13,664 bases of DNA from Gammaproteobacteria bacterium (GTDB lineage: Bacteria > Pseudomonadota > Gammaproteobacteria > GCA-001735895): contig JBNKUM010000119.1 in the NCBI GenBank assembly GCA_050298595.1, positions 1 to 13,664 on the forward strand, in the 5' to 3' direction. Made by a program: the position numbers and the translations under genes. Of this stretch, positions 7,599-13,664 are shown piece after piece (the first letter of the stretch is position 1; each line of letters begins with the position of its first letter). The notes under the pieces were generated by a model. It did not search any database, was not told the origin of the DNA, and was given only the letters and a program-made list of their open reading frames with translations.

Positions 7599-8990
7599 TC
7601 ACTCATCCAGGCCGTAGTCGTCGAAGGCCAGATTTTCAAAACGGGTAAATTGCCCCAGGAATGAAAGTCGTACGCCGCCAATAGGTCCATTACGTTGTTT
7701 ACGAATGAGTATTTCTGCAGTGCCTTTATCTGGACTATCCGGGTTATACACTTCGTCGCGATAGATAAACAGGATAACGTCTGCATCCTGCTCAATACCA
7801 CCAGATTCGCGCAGATCTGACATGACCGGGCGTTTATCGGGACGTTGTTCCACACTTCGATTTAACTGAGAGAGTGCAATAACAGGTACGTGGAGTTCTT
7901 TTGCTAGCGCCTTGAGTGAGCGCGAGATCTCTGATATTTCTGTGGCGCGGTTTTCGCTGCCACCTGAGATCTGCATGAGCTGAAGGTAGTCGATCACAAT
8001 CAGATCCAGTCCGTGCTCACGTTTCAAACGTCTGCATCGGGCGCGCAGTTCGGTGGGCGATAAGGCGGCTGAGTCATCAATAAACAGCTTGGCTTTGGAT
8101 AGCATGGCGACTGATGAGGTGAGTCGTGGCCAGTCATGATCATCCAGTTTACCGGTACGTAGATTATGCTGATTGATGCGCCCGAGCGATGACATCATAC
8201 GCATCGCTAGCTGTTCACCCGGCATCTCCATACTAAATACCGCAACCGAGTGTTCACCGCTCACCGCTGCATATTCAGCCATATTCATGGCAAAGGTGGT
8301 TTTCCCCATAGAGGGCCGTCCGGCAACAATGATAAGGTCTGATCGCTGTAGACCTGAGGTCATTTCATCGAACTTGCTGAAGCCGCTGCTGATACCGGTT
8401 ATTGCTTCGTCACTGCCAAATAGCTCTTCAACCTTTTTAACGGCCTTGGATAGCAGGCTTTTAATATCTTCGAAACCTTCATTTTCGCCTGCACTTTGCT
8501 CGGCGATCTGGAATACCAGACGCTCGGCTTCATCAACCAGTTCTTTACTGGTTCGGCCATCAGCGTTATAGGCTGCGCTGGTGATATCGTGGCCTACCTT
8601 GATCAGCTTGCGCAATACAGAGTACTCACGCACGATCTCGGCATAGGCTTTGACATTAACTGCGGTAGGCGTTTCATTCGCCAGTAGCCCGAGATAAGCC
8701 AACCCACCAATTGAGTCTAGCTCATTGCGGTTTTCCAGCCAGTCTTTGATGGTGACGACATCGTAGGGTTTATCGTCTTCGGAGAGTGCGGCAATAGCGC
8801 GGAAGATCAGTGCATGATCGTGTCGATAAAAATCCTTTTCATTCACCAGATCAGCGATTTTTTCCCAGGATTCATTATCCAGCATCAGCCCACCGAGTAC
8901 CGATTGCTCGGCTTCCATGGAATGAGGAGGGACCTTGAGGTCGTCTACTCGCTGACTTAATTCAGCGACTCGGGTGGCGATTTCAGACAC
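7599..8990 (-). CDS. dnaB: Replicative DNA helicase
   Basis: PPHSMEAEQSVLG, GRPSMGKT Walker A, IDYLQLM, SDLRESGGIEQDAD, KQRNGP. Confidence 0.99.
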   Translation of the reverse strand: MSEIATRVAELSQRVDDLKVPPHSMEAEQSVLGGLMLDNESWEKIADLVNEKDFYRHDHALIFRAIAALSEDDKPYDVVTIKDWLENRNELDSIGGLAYLGLLANETPTAVNVKAYAEIVREYSVLRKLIKVGHDITSAAYNADGRTSKELVDEAERLVFQIAEQSAGENEGFEDIKSLLSKAVKKVEELFGSDEAITGISSGFSKFDEMTSGLQRSDLIIVAGRPSMGKTTFAMNMAEYAAVSGEHSVAVFSMEMPGEQLAMRMMSSLGRINQHNLRTGKLDDHDWPRLTSSVAMLSKAKLFIDDSAALSPTELRARCRRLKREHGLDLIVIDYLQLMQISGGSENRATEISEISRSLKALAKELHVPVIALSQLNRSVEQRPDKRPVMSDLRESGGIEQDADVILFIYRDEVYNPDSPDKGTAEILIRKQRNGPIGGVRLSFLGQFTRFENLAFDDYGLDE

Positions 8991-9111
8991 AGTGAATTTG
9001 TATTCTAGTAGGTGGAAACCATGCTACAGCATAGTTATGCCGGTAGCCTAAATTCTCTGACTCCGCTTGAAAGCGGGCATCATGCGCTCAGACAACAGAC
9101 AGCCAGAGCAC

Positions 9112-9138
9112 AAAGGGGCTGTCACAGACAGCCCCTTT
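9112..9138 (-). terminator. Intrinsic terminator of the rpsF-rplI operon
   Basis: Perfect 12-bp inverted repeat AAAGGGGCTGTC-ACA-GACAGCCCCTTT downstream of rplI. Confidence 0.75.
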
Positions 9139-9203
9139 ATTGTAACAAAACTGTTACCGAAAGAAGAATCAATTATCCCTATCGGTAGAACAGATTTTAT
9201 AAC

Positions 9204-9656
9204 TTATTCTTCACCAACGATTTCGATCACAACAGTAGCGATCACATCGGTATACAGGTGGATATCAACTTCATGCTCACCTGTATTATGTAGAGCGCCT
9301 TCTGGTAAACGTACATCGCGTTTTTCAATTGCGGTACCAGCCGCAGTAATTGCATCAGCGATATCAACAGTGCCGACAGAACCGAACAATTTACCTTCGC
9401 TACCCACCTTGGCAGTAATAGTCACTTTCTCTAGCGCTTCGATAGCAGCTTTACGAGCCATTGCTGTCGCTAAAGCTTCTGCTGCTGCTTTTTCCAGCTC
9501 TGCCCTTTTGGCTTCGAATTCAGCCATGTTTTCAGCAGTTGCTGGTTTGGCTTTGCCACCAGGGAACAGAAAGTTACGTGCAAAACCAGCTTTAACACTA
9601 ACCTTGTCACCCAAAGAACCTAAATTATCAATATTTTCCAACAGAACGATTTCCAT
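9204..9656 (-). CDS. rplI: 50S ribosomal protein L9
   Basis: MEIVLLENIDNLGSLGDKVSVKAGFARNFLFP and GKLFGSV. Confidence 0.99.
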   Translation of the reverse strand: MEIVLLENIDNLGSLGDKVSVKAGFARNFLFPGGKAKPATAENMAEFEAKRAELEKAAAEALATAMARKAAIEALEKVTITAKVGSEGKLFGSVGTVDIADAITAAGTAIEKRDVRLPEGALHNTGEHEVDIHLYTDVIATVVIEIVGEE

Positions 9657-9672
9657 AGGATAAGCCTCTCAC

Positions 9673-10578
9673 TTAATCATCAGTATTCACAGGGACAGAT
9701 TTCAATTTTGCTCGGAAATCCATCCAGTTATCTACAACCCCCAGTATTGCGGTTACACCCGCGACCTGAGGAAAAATTATCATCGTCATATACAGTAAAC
9801 CTAACAAAGCAGATTTCCTGTAATGCCTCGACCAGCTATGTGCGACTGCCAGCCCCTGAAACAAAAACGTTAACACTACCACCATCAACAGCGCTGTTAG
9901 CCAGTCTTGCTGTAATAGCATACTGGCAATGCCCAGTATCAAAGCTAGTAACGCAATGCTTTTACCAAATCGAATGGCATAGAATTCATCACGAAATCCT
10001 CTCGATTCGGACAATCTGGACTGAAACCAGCGACCAATCAGTAACGAAACAGCAAAAATAAAATACATCACCGCAATCATCAGCATGGTCATACTGTGTA
10101 CGACATTTTGCAGGCCTGTTTCAAGCTGCTCCATGTCTATACCCGGCTGCTGTTGCATATCCTGAAACATAAGCCTCAGAATTTCCTTCAACGCATCTTC
10201 TGCGCCAGGCCACAACATAAACTGTAATGCTACGGCTATCATCGCCAGCCCCATTCCCACCATAAAGGTAAAAGAAATTGAACGCGTTCGACGTAAAACT
10301 TCAGCCAGAACCATCACGGGTAACCATTGAACTAGCCCAATGGAGACACCCATTATCAGTGATTGCGTCAGCAAATAACTGACTGCGGTTATCCCGACGA
10401 TTGAAACCAGAATCACTCTGGTTCCTGACACCAGACCCTGTGTCAGAATAATCAGGCTGACTATCGCACTACTTAAGATGGATAGTAGCGGGATAAACAG
10501 TGACAGTACCGCAAGGATACCTGCCACTGTTGCTGCATGCATTGGACCTTTAAGGGCATATCTTGCTATTGCTAACAT
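9673..10578 (-). CDS. DUF2232/YybS-like multi-pass membrane protein
   Basis: Highly hydrophobic, FQGLAVAH and C-terminal GVVDNWMDFR; occupies the usual position between rpsR and rplI. Confidence 0.85.
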   Translation of the reverse strand: MLAIARYALKGPMHAATVAGILAVLSLFIPLLSILSSAIVSLIILTQGLVSGTRVILVSIVGITAVSYLLTQSLIMGVSIGLVQWLPVMVLAEVLRRTRSISFTFMVGMGLAMIAVALQFMLWPGAEDALKEILRLMFQDMQQQPGIDMEQLETGLQNVVHSMTMLMIAVMYFIFAVSLLIGRWFQSRLSESRGFRDEFYAIRFGKSIALLALILGIASMLLQQDWLTALLMVVVLTFLFQGLAVAHSWSRHYRKSALLGLLYMTMIIFPQVAGVTAILGVVDNWMDFRAKLKSVPVNTDD

Positions 10579-10606
10579 GACTGTCCTGTAAGGCCGAAGC
10601 CGTTAA

Positions 10607-10831
10607 TTAATGCTGGTCGGTATATGGCAGCAATGACAGAAAACGAGCGCGTTTAATAGCAGTTGCTAACTGGCGCTGATATTTTGCCTTGGTACCGGTT
10701 ACTCGACTTGGTACGATCTTACCGGTTTCGGTGATGTACTCTTTCAGAGTTTCCAGATCTTTGTAATCAATAACTTCAGAGTCATCTGAGCTGAACTTAC
10801 AGAATCTTTTACGACGAAAAAAACGTGACAT
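10607..10831 (-). CDS. rpsR: 30S ribosomal protein S18
   Basis: IDYKD...[13 protein letters not shown]...[19 protein letters not shown]. Confidence 0.99.
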
Positions 10832-11307
10832 TATTCTTCTCCCTCAGGCTTGGTTTCAACGGCTTCTTCTACAGCTGCTTCAACTACAGCGGCAGGAACT
10901 TCATCAGAGGCTAAAATTTCTTCATCAGTTTCTTCATCAGTTTCTACACGTGCTGGTTTACGCTCAGACTTGGCAGATTCTTCTTTCTCAACTGCAGACA
11001 TCATAGGTGACTTAGTAGTAACCGCATCTTTCATGACCAGAGTCAAATGACGCAGTACGGCATCGTTAAAGCGGAAGATAGATTCCAGTTCTTCAAGAAT
11101 TTCACCAGAACATTCAATGTTCATCAGCACGTAATGGGCTTTGTGGATTTTCTTGATAGGGAATTCAAGATGACGACGACCCCAGTCTTCTTCACGATGA
11201 ACTGCACCGCCAGAAGCTGTGATCATGTTGCGATAGCGTTCCACCATAGCGGGGACCTGTTCGCTCTGATCCGGATGGACCAGGAATACTATTTCGTAAT
11301 GTCTCAT
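10831..11307 (-). CDS. rpsF: 30S ribosomal protein S6 with long acidic tail
   Basis: [42 protein letters not shown]. Confidence 0.99.
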
Positions 11308-11360
11308 AACATCCTCATGGAATAAGCCCCCTGTCTACGAAAACAGTGGAGCGAGAAGTT
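11308..11360 (-). promoter_or_regulatory. Probable S6:S18 ribosomal protein leader RNA
   Basis: Minus strand: hairpin GCUCCACUGUUU/AGACAGGGGGC, unpaired CCA, and outer stem UUCUCG/UGAGGA that sequesters the SD. This fits the known S6:S18-binding motif. Confidence 0.6.
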
Positions 11361-11366
11361 TAAGGA

Positions 11367-11401
11367 GCGCGGATTCTACATGAGCACAACGGGTATCGCA
11401 A
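11367..11401 (-). promoter_or_regulatory. Sigma70 promoter of the rpsF operon
   Basis: -35 TTGCGA (11401-11396), 17-bp spacer, -10 TAGAAT (11378-11373), GC-rich discriminator CCGCGC. Confidence 0.8.
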
Positions 11402-11509
11402 GGTTTGTTGGGCTTTTCAGGGGAATTAGGCAGGATTTGATCAGCCATCTTCAGATAAGGTTCGTAGAGTAGCCAGCATAAGAGGGCGAAGTTCTGGCCT
11501 GACTGATGA

Positions 11510-11788
11510 TTAAAGAGTCATTAGTTCGCGTATATCATCTGGAAACGACAGGCATAATGGATCATGTTCGACATGCCGCTCATCCATCCAGCCAGTGGGA
11601 TGCCTGAGCTGGTTTTCAAAACGCCTTGCCAGTTCATCACTAATAGGTTCGAAGGGATTATCCAGTAATACATCGAGTGTACCCTGCTCCAGCTTTATCT
11701 CCTTCAGAAAACGTTTCACAGCGGCCTGTCCCTGTTTGATTTCCCTATAACAATTGCTCAGATTCTGATGTCGTATTGCCTGAGCGAT
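11510..11788 (-). CDS. Small phage-repressor-like (XRE/Cro) HTH protein; start non-canonical or lost (possible pseudogene)
   Basis: The frame is open upstream of the listed GTG (11719) as far as TAA at 11800-11798, giving IAQAIRHQNL...ISDELARRFENQLRHPTGWMD, a pattern typical of repressor N-domains. SD-like TAAGGT lies 6 nt before the ATC at 11788. Confidence 0.5.
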   Translation of the reverse strand: MAQAIRHQNLSNCYREIKQGQAAVKRFLKEIKLEQGTLDVLLDNPFEPISDELARRFENQLRHPTGWMDERHVEHDPLCLSFPDDIRELMTL

Positions 11789-11910
11789 AAGGTGACCTTA
11801 AGGGTCAACCTGTCGGCAGCCTACCAGGTCAGCTACAAGGTTGATCATATGACTGTACTCGGCGGGCTGGAAGGCGTGCTGAAGGATACTGTCAGGATCA
11901 ATGTGTAATG

Positions 11911-11947
11911 TGAAAAACTGACTCAGGTAATAGGGCCTGAGTCAGTT
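11911..11947 (-). terminator. Intrinsic terminator downstream of the RT
   Basis: Perfect 12-bp inverted repeat AACTGACTCAGG-N8-CCTGAGTCAGTT (11916-11947) running into UUUUU on the minus strand, about 50 nt after the RT stop. Confidence 0.75.
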
Positions 11948-11995
11948 CAGGAGAATTATCATCCCTACCCTGGATACTCGGAAAACAATCCTCTC

Positions 11996-13297
11996 TTAAC
12001 TCTTTGAAAAATCGATTCTCTGATATAAGCTTTTTAACTTCTCTGCTTTGACTGGATTCAAAGTATTCACATATTGGATACGACCCGACAGATAGGCGGG
12101 GAAGTCTGGATGATTATGCCTGTTCTGACTAGCCGCACCATGACGGATGCAATTATGTAAAATCGCTTTTAATTCATCATAGTAGCGGCGGTCAATGTTA
12201 GGCCTATTATTGATGATGATGCCCACCAGCTTCTGTCTTTGATGGCTGGCTTTTCGACGAGACTTTTTAAAATTAAGCTCAAGCCCCTCTTCAATACATA
12301 TACTGCCGACCAGTGGCTCTAAAAAACGCCAGTCGCGTGACTGATTGGTTGAAAAAGCCAGGTCATCGGCATAGCGCGAATACGTCAATCCTGCACTTTT
12401 AGCTAAACCACTAAGCCGACGATCCAGCCTCAGCATAACGGCATTGGAAAGCACGGGTGAAGACGGCGCACCTTGCGTCAGATGTCGTCTCTTAACGCGC
12501 TGACGTTGTTCCGGATCAAGTTGAGATAACTCAGGCACGTCGGACCTGCATCGATGTGTGCACAAATTGGTTAGGTTAATGGATATCAGTTTGTTATAAC
12601 CAAGATTTCTGAAAACCTGATAAACCGGCAGCCAATCGATAGATTGAAAAAAATGTGCCAGGTCATAAACCAGTAAATAACTTTTACCGCTATGCTTACT
12701 GGCATGGCTTAGACAACTATGCTTTGCTCGAAAACCATGAGCTGCTTTATGAATCGGCGCGTGACAAAGAATATTGTTTGAGATTTTTTGTTGCAGTGAT
12801 TTCAATAAGGTTTTAGGTGATTCAATCAATCGTACCCCACCACTGCGTTTAGCGATGCAATGATAGTGATAGTGTCGCAAGTGATCAGGACAAACACTGT
12901 TGTGAGATTTTACATCACATAACCAATCTAGCTGCGGGCCTGTAATACCAAACCAGAATAAAAGATCATTAATAGTTTCAAGCTGAGGTGAACCGGTATT
13001 TTCATCGCGAATGGGTACATTGCCCTGCAAAGAATATTCAACAATTTTTGGCTTTTCTGGTGACCATATAAACCAGGCACCTAAAAGTGGGTGCTGGGCA
13101 AGAAAGTGAGATATATCGTTCTGAGCAGGCTTTACAGGAAAAGCGAGTAGTAGCTGATTTACCAACTGGTCAATATCATCGGGTAAGTTATCAATAGCTA
13201 GAATCGCACTCGACAACAGGGTTGTATAATGCCAGTCCACACTGTGAAACCAGCAGCTTAATTGATGAACAAAATAACTTCGCTGTCGACCATTCAA
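11996..13297 (-). CDS. Retron-type reverse transcriptase with N-terminal extension (433 aa)
   Basis: IAKRSGGVRLIESP, HKAAHGF (region X), DLAHFFQSI, LTQGAPSSP, YSRYADDLAFS (YADD at 12373-12362), QKLVGIIIN (region Y variant). TTG start with SD GGAGAG. No maturase or endonuclease domain. Confidence 0.93.
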   Translation of the reverse strand: MNGRQRSYFVHQLSCWFHSVDWHYTTLLSSAILAIDNLPDDIDQLVNQLLLAFPVKPAQNDISHFLAQHPLLGAWFIWSPEKPKIVEYSLQGNVPIRDENTGSPQLETINDLLFWFGITGPQLDWLCDVKSHNSVCPDHLRHYHYHCIAKRSGGVRLIESPKTLLKSLQQKISNNILCHAPIHKAAHGFRAKHSCLSHASKHSGKSYLLVYDLAHFFQSIDWLPVYQVFRNLGYNKLISINLTNLCTHRCRSDVPELSQLDPEQRQRVKRRHLTQGAPSSPVLSNAVMLRLDRRLSGLAKSAGLTYSRYADDLAFSTNQSRDWRFLEPLVGSICIEEGLELNFKKSRRKASHQRQKLVGIIINNRPNIDRRYYDELKAILHNCIRHGAASQNRHNHPDFPAYLSGRIQYVNTLNPVKAEKLKSLYQRIDFSKS

Positions 13298-13351
13298 AAC
13301 ACTCTCCGTGGGTTAAGCCGAATCTGTGGTTTCAGGTTTAAATCAATAAAA

Positions 13352-13500
13352 AACGGACACCCAACTCACAATCCGCATGAACTGTCTTGCACACAGTGCA
13401 ACAGCGTTCCTGCCACGTTAAGGAAGTAATTACTTTACCCTGGGGTTGCCCCAGAGCCCAATAAACACCTGGTTTATCGGCCAATACTTGGGTATCCGTT
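13352..13500 (-). ncRNA. Retron msr-msd RNA
   Basis: a1/a2 arms AACGGAUACCCAA (13500-13488) and UUGGGUGUCCGUU (13364-13352) form 13 bp with one G-U. G at 13487 faces G at 13365. Hairpins at 13480-13458 and 13457-13437; msd-type hairpin at 13375-13413. Ends 54 nt before the RT start. Confidence 0.85.
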
Positions 13501-13536
13501 CCTTAGTAAGGTATGAAAATATAAATCAAAAATCAA
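13501..13536 (-). promoter_or_regulatory. Candidate sigma70 promoter for the retron RNA
   Basis: TTGATT (13536-13531), 17-bp spacer, TACCTT (13513-13508), then 7 nt to the first base of the RNA's 5' arm (13500). Confidence 0.35.
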
Positions 13537-13664
13537 TGTTCTAATCGGGAACGATTGATTTCATACAGACAAATCCCAGTCGCTACCGATACATTCAGGC
13601 TTTCTACCTGCCCCTGCATCGGCAGCTTGACCAGATAATCGCATTGCTCGGCGGTCAGGCGGCG
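13533..13664 (-). CDS. rlmB: 23S rRNA Gm2251 methyltransferase, 3' end (partial, not in the ORF track)
   Basis: Manual translation [43 protein letters not shown] contains the SPOUT motif SLNVSVA. The rlmB-rpsF order is the expected synteny. Confidence 0.92.

Follow-up and report, generated by a model that had tools for sequence, protein, structure and literature searches.

A probable stand-alone, two-part retron between rlmB and rpsF in a gammaproteobacterium

Between the genes rlmB and rpsF of a gammaproteobacterium lies a small locus which, judged from its sequence and from that of its relatives, is very probably a complete and functional retron of two parts, a structured RNA and a reverse transcriptase (RT), belonging to the stand-alone 'clade 11' or 'outgroup' kind rather than being the broken form of a tripartite system. 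The window that we analysed is the entire 13,664-bp contig JBNKUM010000119.1 (C119) of assembly GCA_050298595.1 (here G000; 5.49 Mb in 119 contigs). The current view of retrons is that of tripartite defence systems akin to toxin-antitoxin pairs, and genome editing makes use of them to manufacture DNA inside cells; what this view leaves unexplained is the stand-alone lineages. On the minus strand of the window, the tail of rlmB is followed by the structured RNA, the RT, a terminator hairpin, a spacer of 689 bp and then rpsF. A sequence-only reading of this DNA had proposed a compact retron of RNA, RT and terminator at this place, and all of these elements are indeed present. Its order was right and its spacings were off by about 5 nt: the RNA starts 27 nt past the rlmB stop (32 had been given) and ends 49 nt before the TTG codon at 13297 (54 had been given).

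The RT carries RVT_1 as its sole Pfam match, over residues 148-361 (2e-24). Among the PADLOC models it is recognized best by RT_other (5.4e-124) and RT_outgroup (6.8e-118), with RT_XIII third (5.3e-88) and III-A models at about 1e-70, and the 25 best of its 64 matches are all retron RT models. This confirms a retron RT, and the possibility that the enzyme might group outside retrons was not borne out. The best NCBIfam model, the retron St85 family (1.1e-61), remains under its curated cut-off of 235 bits, and the models for group II introns and Drt match much less well (1e-12 to 1e-7). The AlphaFold2 model of the protein, made from an input alignment of 50 sequences, has a mean predicted local distance difference test score (pLDDT) of 91.8, and its top match in a Foldseek search of the PDB is the RT of retron Ec86 (7v9x_A; E 5.8e-22, template modelling score on the target, TM(target), 0.83, 28% identity), ahead of Eco2, type I-A, Eco7/Ec78, Ec83 and Eco8, ranks 1 to 17 being occupied throughout by retron RTs. 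The catalytic YADD motif (12373-12362) is intact: in a 50-sequence alignment of the family (A1), Y309, D311 and D312 are invariant, A310 is nearly so, and the window RT has every invariant column. The family is large, with at least 4155 proteins at E <= 1e-10 among 8000 candidates scored; the best 120 homologues are 384-485 aa long and mostly cover 97-100% of the query. Homologues with a named source come from Granulosicoccus, Arenicella, Exilibacterium, 'Chromatiales' and gammaproteobacteria, and one family relative lies in a Saccharothrix genome.

The second part of the retron is the RNA. A 176-nt stretch folds with -69.3 kcal/mol (z = -5.5), which none of 200 shuffles equals, and the consensus structure of seven relatives displays a 17-bp a1/a2 stem, two msr hairpins and an msd stem-loop, amounting to 53 pairs, 11 of them compensatory. 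From these seven RNAs, namely those of the window, of an allele on contig C6 of the same assembly, of four congeners and of one metagenome contig (with an RT 48% identical), we built a covariance model, R1. Outside the training set, 64 of 84 loci have a match to it upstream of the RT and on the same strand (E <= 3.2e-4). Relative to the extrapolated RT start, the match ends between -53 and +231 nt in the 69 alignment members with a tabulated RT position, 6 of which are training loci. Over 67 distinct RNA sequences, in an alignment fitted to the model's own structure, 91.6% of cells are paired, versus 66.6% once shuffled and 42-49% when the partners are slid; 49 of the 53 pairs change on both sides, with a covariation score of 0.569 versus 0.165. 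As far as their sequences tell, the upstream RNAs are one coherent RNA family. At the 3' edge of a1, a CCAAG motif (C21 C22 A23 A24 G25) is invariant in nine of nine aligned RNAs, and the G at 13487 would be the guanosine that offers its 2'-OH for priming, a position that matches the general layout of retron RNAs as given in the accessible part of a census preprint. An open reading frame (ORF) of 50 aa inside the RNA, seen in the C6 allele (L002), was rejected as coding, given a 2-nt gap in hairpin 1 of the congener G001 and substitutions that compensate one another in pairing.

It might be asked whether the enzyme is instead an RT of another bacterial class (group II intron, DRT/UG or Abi) and the fold upstream of it fortuitous. 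A search of Rfam with 11000-13664 (E <= 1) returned no family for the RNA, and the retron models of NCBIfam remain under their curated cut-offs, which speaks for this view. It is effectively refuted: the top PADLOC matches are all retron RTs and the group II intron and Drt models lie far behind, the 17 best structural matches are again all retron RTs, and the RNA has an a1/a2 architecture with family-wide covariation.

Table 1. Features of the retron locus and of its borders in the window.
Feature	Position	Strand	Basis or remark
rlmB 3' end (23S rRNA methyltransferase, SpoU family)	13533..13664	-	Pfam SpoU_methylase 2.8e-10; TGA stop 13535-13533
Candidate -10 box TATATT	13518..13523	-	inferred from sequence; predicted transcription start ~13511-13505
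msr-msd RNA, 159 nt	13347..13505	-	fold, consensus structure, covariance model
a1	13505-13489	-	
Predicted branching/priming guanosine, unpaired, just 3' of a1	13487	-	invariant in CCAAG motif
Two msr hairpins	13480-13437	-	
msd stem-loop	13423-13364	-	
a2	13363-13347	-	
RT, 433 aa, TTG start	11996..13297	-	ORF call, RVT_1, PADLOC, structure model
N-terminal five-helix domain, RT residues 1-80 (linker to ~104)	13058..13297	-	AlphaFold2 model, family alignment
Intrinsic terminator, 13-bp hairpin and U-run 3' of RT	11915..11948	-	fold
SPFH/Band-7 remnant	11783..11908	+	residues 210-226 joined to ~351-383 of 383-aa protein
XRE-type helix-turn-helix (HTH) pseudogene	11444..11797	-	N-terminal ~84 residues (HTH) lost; in-frame TAA
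rpsF (ribosomal protein S6), downstream island border	10831..11307	-	Pfam Ribosomal_S6 6.1e-29

The cassette ends as the sequence-only reading had it, with a strong terminator: the hairpin has a folding energy of -25.1 kcal/mol (z = -6.3; 0 of 200 shuffles equal it). It was missed by a simple scan for terminator consensus and revealed by folding. At the other end, a promoter consensus scan called nothing at the RNA start; TTGACC-type -35 boxes, read from the alignment, stand at the equivalent position in the congener G001 and in locus L029.

No effector was found in cis, in keeping with what had been claimed from the sequence. On either strand of 11996-13533 there is no ORF of at least 60 aa other than the RT, and Pfam, PADLOC and Foldseek recognize no effector domain in the RT protein. 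We surveyed 90 family loci, made up of the window, four congeners, five other genome loci and 80 metagenome loci retained from 537 confirmed stretches, the high-GC metagenome loci carrying no taxon assignment. When ORFs within 5 kb of the 90 loci were clustered all against all, the largest cluster of shared neighbours comprised 10 loci and was made of antisense ORFs overlapping the edges of the RT. ORFs of at least 100 aa within 400 nt of the cassettes were singletons in 245 of 280 cases, and their largest family reached 4 loci; no gene is consistently linked to the family in these 90 loci. Pfam scans of the neighbours, in the window and in relatives, gave no SWIM/winged-helix or HEAT/ARM gene. 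The nearest marine-type relative, L029, has opposite-strand genes on both sides, a hydrolase and a TANGO2-like gene. In a subgroup from soil or peat metagenomes (L066, L089, L091 and L100), the retron adjoins ilvC and ilvB on the opposite strand, a recurrence which is housekeeping synteny.

The history of the site can be followed in the genus of G000, where four sister species (G001, G004, G010 and G012) carry the RT. Of the 13 other genomes that represent the genus, no more than these four have it, always between rlmB and rpsF; among 399 further genomes sampled from across the class, two have full-length relatives. The four carriers are also those with the closest rlmB (89-98% identity, versus 68-78% in the remaining congeners). 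Comparison of the rlmB-rpsF interval, which the earlier reading had suggested, is informative: in seven of the eight RT-less congeners with an rlmB match, rpsF begins 113-272 bp after that match, with neither RT nor HTH gene between. The eighth, G008 (L116, C315:1-2686), has no rpsF within 1244 bp after rlmB, and G009 gave no rlmB match. From the same samples as the window comes a metagenome contig that joins 11321 to 13551, an empty-site form, and a second metagenome contig joins 11386 to 12002, a form like that of G010. As read from these sequences, the island with the cassette was gained, at an otherwise tight rlmB-rpsF junction, by the common ancestor of one subclade within the genus.

Since then the RT has been kept. 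Its synonymous divergence (dS) from the window is 0.23, 0.25 and 1.16 in G010, G012 and G004, versus 0.28, 0.30 and 1.20 for rlmB; RT dS tracks rlmB dS, and this fits vertical descent in these three genomes. The ratio of nonsynonymous to synonymous divergence (dN/dS) of the RT is 0.11-0.21 overall and 0.10-0.18 for its RT part; the pair G000 and G010, neither of which has intact neighbours, gives 0.166. These ratios show purifying selection on the RT, also where the island neighbours decayed. In G001 the history differs: its flanking genes have dS of 0.15-0.53, yet its RT is only 52% identical and dS is saturated. A quick IQ-TREE search with all 50 rows of A1, midpoint-rooted, pairs the G001 RT (P0029) with P0019 (support 100), outside the five-member clade (99) that holds the window RT, and the sequence that G001 shares with the window resumes inside the terminator loop, near 11930. 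Because of its close flanks, its divergent RT, the position of the latter in the tree and this point of resumption, we conclude that in G001 a divergent cassette of the same family has taken the place of the original one. The terminator agrees with this, being kept in G012 and shared by G001 in its 3' half only, which we take as the edge of the replaced cassette. The accessible text of Mestre 2020 (PMC7736814) tells of a similar situation in Vibrio cholerae, where the divergent retrons Vc95, Vc81 and Vc137 occupy one chromosomal site, as inferred for G001; they are of other retron types and from another genus, and the likeness is one of population behaviour only.

The assembly G000 itself holds a second allele of the retron. 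At the end of contig C6 (1-590; L002), rlmB is followed by the RNA and by the initial 118 RT codons of an allele like that of G012 (dN 0.011 to G012), and the rlmB tail of the window is identical to the complete 245-aa rlmB of C6. There are thus two retron alleles (C6:1-590 and window 13297-13664) after an identical rlmB tail, from which it follows that the assembly broke on strain variation; the two contigs would end here through a mixture of strains or species in the sample, not through duplication.

The interval between RT and rpsF is not empty, a point missed by the sequence-only reading, which had rightly seen no co-transcribed effector downstream. By tblastn, an SPFH protein matches at 11783-11833 (100% over 17 aa) and at 11807-11905 (73%, 3.7e-10), and the HTH pseudogene is 80% identical to residues 80-197 of a 197-aa intact protein, with one TAA. 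The intact sister copies have Pfam matches to Band_7 (SPFH, in G004 and G012) and to HTH_3 (HTH). We understand the 689-bp spacer, from these remnants, as the scar of two unrelated genes. In G004 the succession is rlmB, RNA and RT, then on the opposite strand a 320-aa gene, RtcB and SPFH, then the divergent HTH gene and finally rpsF. G012 has both SPFH and HTH at the site. In G001 a stub of SPFH is joined to an HTH that lacks its N-terminal end, the HTH ORF beginning 235 bp past the RT, and G010 lost all island neighbours, so that rpsF follows the RT after 255 bp. G001 has, between rlmB and the RNA, a gene for a KAP-family nucleoside triphosphatase (NTPase) of 1541 aa (L014 2053-6678, minus strand), which may have arrived together with the replaced cassette. 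The protein combines BNR/Sortilin-type beta-propeller repeats with a P-loop NTPase and has PADLOC matches to QatA, PifA and PDC-S20; it alone matched when PADLOC was run on the island proteins, HTH, SPFH, RtcB, the 320-aa protein and p76 giving no match. The candidate p76 (L011:13646-13876) was set aside, its composition looking, in our judgement, non-coding.

The module of the sister species (L011/G004 9517-14480; L013/G012 8554-11323), which is made of the 320-aa protein without known family, an RtcB RNA ligase, SPFH and the divergent 197-aa HTH protein, has a layout that suggests a regulator next to an operon for RNA repair or stress; that the HTH protein regulates the SPFH-RtcB operon is suggested by the divergent layout in G004 and G012 only. 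Searched by tblastn with HTH, SPFH, RtcB, the 320-aa protein, p76 and the KAP NTPase, none of the 85 loci outside the genus subclade gave a match. On this evidence, the island neighbours are not the partners of the retron.

The earlier reading had allowed that a partner might have decayed, and this has a physical basis because pseudogenes adjoin the cassette. In its most explicit form, the HTH protein next door, perhaps together with SPFH and RtcB, would once have been the partner of the retron, in the manner of type VI, and the window would keep a relic of it. Orthologues of the HTH gene do occupy the interval from RT to rpsF in G001, G004 and G012, in the orientation of the RT, with the pseudogene in G000; the RT-less congeners carry neither gene at the site, and in G001 the HTH ORF starts close behind the RT. 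We nevertheless hold this to be very improbable. G010 has lost the HTH gene and G000 has it in broken form, but dN/dS of the RT between the two is as low as stated above; in G004 and G012 opposite-strand genes separate the HTH gene from the RT, and its orientation, divergent from the SPFH operon, is the layout of a local regulator. It was not replaced along with the RT cassette in G001: between G012 and G001 its dS is 0.54, the divergence of the resident lineage, kept while the RT cassette changed. The family at large has no homologue of it beside the other 85 loci, and PADLOC does not match it. Its paralogues elsewhere in the genus, at 45-50% identity, stand beside unrelated genes (G000:C94:219592-220131, in L122 6569-7186; G010:C74; G011; G002; G001:C49). 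Type VI is described, in the accessible text of Mestre 2020 (PMC7736814), as a clade 3 RT with an adjacent HTH protein of 91-110 aa. The type is made of a small Cro/C1 HTH protein, a small toxin and the RT, and the presence of an HTH_3 gene in the same island of the sister species recalls it. The differences are that the protein here has 197 aa, is non-adjacent in two of three intact cases and is dispensable, and that RT_VI scores just 2.4e-39 with the window RT.

The RT is longer than its catalytic core. The N-terminal extension that had been noticed from the sequence is real and conserved across the family: its helices (residues 2-19, 24-34, 42-52, 59-68 and 70-78) form a domain alignable across 21 loci and 50 proteins, even in relatives at 34-37% identity. 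In the loci whose RT match begins at residue 104, the RNA match ends about 310 nt before the RT similarity, which implies that the extension is universal in the family; an extension of about 100 aa, helical domain and linker, would thus be common to all its members. Its conserved columns are hydrophobic or structural only (L13, W22 and P57 in the wide set; W22, L27, P39 and W75 in the 50-protein alignment). Foldseek found no match of fold for the domain in the PDB (best E = 4), the Pfam and PADLOC scans of the RT gave no family for it, and a search of Atlas features gave a best score of 0.78 to an unnamed cluster, which is no useful lead. With phmmer, residues 1-100 met 13 matches at E <= 0.001 among 1.84 billion representatives, and 12 of the 13 sit at the N terminus of the protein. 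Nine are in proteins of 60-272 aa (probably fragments), three in proteins of 417-432 aa, and the thirteenth protein, of 674 aa, has six weak stretches; among these 13 matches there is no sign of the domain in other protein contexts.

This domain could be a built-in effector, fused to the RT as in types I-C, XI and XII but on the N-terminal side, in which case loss or alteration of the multicopy single-stranded DNA (msDNA) upon phage attack would free it to harm the cell. All family members examined have it, purifying selection acts on it (dN/dS of the N-terminal part 0.11-0.43), and no gene in cis is otherwise available for such a role. Its small size, five helices in about 80 residues, argues the other way, as do the absence of a catalytic-looking set of conserved acidic, basic or histidine residues and the failure of PDB, Pfam, PADLOC and Atlas searches to give a lead. 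It may merely bind RNA or msDNA, or mediate oligomerisation. We consider the built-in effector a doubtful possibility.

Stand-alone cassettes have already been described, and here the claim of novelty made from the sequence fails. In its accessible text, Mestre 2020 (PMC7736814) reports (msr-msd)-RT cassettes without associated protein for clade 11 and for one branch of clade 2, the Ec107-like one, terms them orphan retrons and asks whether an effector in trans or another mechanism is at work. The SPIRE survey (mSystems 2026, PMC13712802), in the parts accessible, lists clade11-A (n = 71) and clade11-B (n = 39) with 'Outgroup' non-coding RNAs (ncRNAs), both rated as of low novelty; for clade11-A it gives an 'OutgroupA' ncRNA, reports that no accessory domain recurs, and notes an enrichment in Pseudomonadota, Actinomycetota and Acidobacteriota. 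A search of the literature for wording about effector-less retrons returned unrelated papers only. The present locus resembles clade 11 in having RT_other and RT_outgroup as best PADLOC models, no recurrent accessory gene and an ncRNA directly upstream, and the taxa of its relatives (Saccharothrix, gammaproteobacteria) broadly match the reported spread of clade11-A. It differs in that the subfamily of the window is marine and gammaproteobacterial, whereas the accessible text of Mestre 2020 (PMC7736814) calls clade 11 essentially actinobacterial; an N-terminal domain, a fixed rlmB-rpsF site and an analysis of selection go unmentioned for clade 11 in the accessible parts of these sources. Names of models, absence of a partner and taxonomic spread, all read from sequence, fit the stand-alone clade 11 group. 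The locus is a further member of a known group of stand-alone retrons, of which the sequence-only reading had the anatomy right and the novelty wrong. That reading had also foreseen that the locus might prove just a copy of a described type, which is largely the case; the linked effector that it had expected of homologues in such a case was not found.

Other known retrons are more remote. Retron-Eco5 (Ec107), from the clade 2 branch, likewise consists of RNA and RT without a specific associated protein, and for the orphans of its branch partner loss, a partner in trans or a different mechanism are discussed in the accessible text of Mestre 2020 (PMC7736814). It belongs to another RT clade, the RT_Ec107-like model matching the window RT at only 3.3e-55. 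No N-terminal extension comparable to that of the window RT is known in Ec107. Retron-Eco1 (Ec86, type II-A) is the closest solved structure of an RT core and follows the same a1/a2-msr-msd logic of RNA; the title of its PDB entry is that of a complex with the effector, whereas the window RT has no adjacent effector gene, and its chain of 314 aa is without the N-terminal domain of about 100 aa. Type XIII (clade 10; SWIM/winged-helix with or without HEAT/ARM) provides the third-best PADLOC model and is noted, in the accessible text of PMC7736814, for vertical inheritance; no SWIM- or ARM-like neighbour was found here, and the window RT scores about 120 bits lower with RT_XIII than with RT_other.

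Several points weigh against reading the locus as a complete retron of the stand-alone group. The equation of RT_outgroup and RT_other with clade 11 of Mestre rests on names, PMC13712802 being the source that, in its accessible text, ties 'OutgroupA/B' ncRNAs to clade 11. The motifs of retron regions X (NAxxH) and Y (VTG), named in the accessible part of PMC13712802, are met loosely in A1: KAAHG stands for NAxxH and LVG for VTG, the window RT having H-K-A-A-H-G-F and K-L-V-G-I-I-I-N where the family consensus is xHxAAHGF and QKxTGIVVN. VTG does occur in some family members (e.g. QKVTGVVVN); NAxxH is not literally present in A1. The covariation counts, drawn as they are from an alignment fitted to the structure of the model, are biased toward it. 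ORF calling was naive in the high-GC metagenome loci, and only 53 of the 90 loci have at least 1 kb on both sides, so that small or fast-evolving partners could escape. The HTH gene co-occurs with the RT at the rlmB-rpsF site in four of five genomes, once as a pseudogene. The retron is known here from assembled DNA contigs alone, its msDNA, transcript and phenotype being predictions, and the case for a role in defence is circumstantial.

How such a two-part retron would work can be sketched. A dedicated promoter at the rlmB stop would drive transcription of the RNA; the RT would bind the msr hairpins, prime on the 2'-OH of the guanosine at 13487 and copy the msd stem-loop into a short msDNA of perhaps 55-65 nt, which would remain bound. 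The working unit would be a particle of RT, msDNA and RNA that includes the N-terminal domain, and its output would need no gene in cis. Most likely such a particle would sense phage and act by way of either a host factor that is unlinked or its own N-terminal domain; a role outside defence is less likely. The accessible part of the census preprint states that each RT clade was sampled for production of RT-DNA, with intermediate yields for clades besides 2, 9, 10, 3 and 4, and it does not mention clade 11 by name.

We may go one step further and propose, tentatively, that RNA, msDNA and an RT with its five-helix domain form a self-sufficient system of two components, performing its whole function, be it defence or another, without a dedicated effector protein. 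This would explain why purifying selection acts at a housekeeping junction despite the decay of neighbours, why like-for-like exchange took place as a bare cassette (perhaps with the KAP NTPase in G001), and why some 90 loci have no recurring partner in common. Taken together, a host or trans partner or a self-sufficient defence system comes first among the possible modes of action, ahead of the N-terminal effector, then of domestication, and the decayed HTH partner comes last.

Domestication would mean that the cassette was turned to a non-defence role, for example through an msDNA-RT particle that modulates nucleic-acid metabolism or stress responses beside translation genes. It would suit the vertical inheritance at one site over a dS of about 1.2 with purifying selection, the lack of a toxin-like partner and the housekeeping surroundings of other members, such as those beside ilvC and ilvB, and the possibility is raised for vertically inherited or orphan retrons in the accessible text of Mestre 2020 (PMC7736814). 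We regard it as rather unlikely in view of the patchy distribution within genus and class, of a variable island that includes, in G001, a KAP-family NTPase with QatA- and PifA-like matches, of the like-for-like replacement in G001, which resembles the turnover of defence loci, and of a genomic site that varies between lineages.

The self-sufficient reading, if true, would define a mode of retron action independent of an effector. Current knowledge is not overturned, because the stand-alone class is already in print. What the present analysis contributes is the recognition of the spacer as a scar of unrelated genes, with natural knock-outs in sister species that show the adjacent genes to be dispensable, as well as purifying selection combined with like-for-like exchange, and a family-wide N-terminal helical domain without fold match. 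The locus offers a clean natural example on which to study effector-less retrons, being a minimal cassette of some 1.6 kb that brings a terminator and probably a promoter of its own; with dispensable neighbours, selection, a covarying RNA and a confident RT model, the question becomes directly testable by cloning. The compact pair of RT and ncRNA may also be of use for msDNA production.

Some observations concern other parts of the genome. A second, unrelated RT of 464 aa is found in G000 on the 3.7-kb contig C13 (L125; 2330-3724, plus strand); its PADLOC matches are to the generic RT model (2.6e-77), to the Cas1-RT type (Cas1_IIIb, 2.6e-54) and to UG17/Drt9-like models, and it resembles an RT of group II introns or of CRISPR systems more than a retron RT. 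The HTH paralogue on contig C94 adjoins exosortase (EpsH) and VIT/VWA genes, an uninformative context, and its C-terminal part has a weak Imm6-like Pfam match (6e-4), below the cut-off. Beyond rpsF, the window continues with rpsR, a 301-aa gene, rplI and dnaB-sized ORFs. The 301-aa gene (9673-10578, minus strand), between rpsR and rplI, is present in all congeners examined and evolves faster than its ribosomal neighbours (dN 0.19 versus G004).

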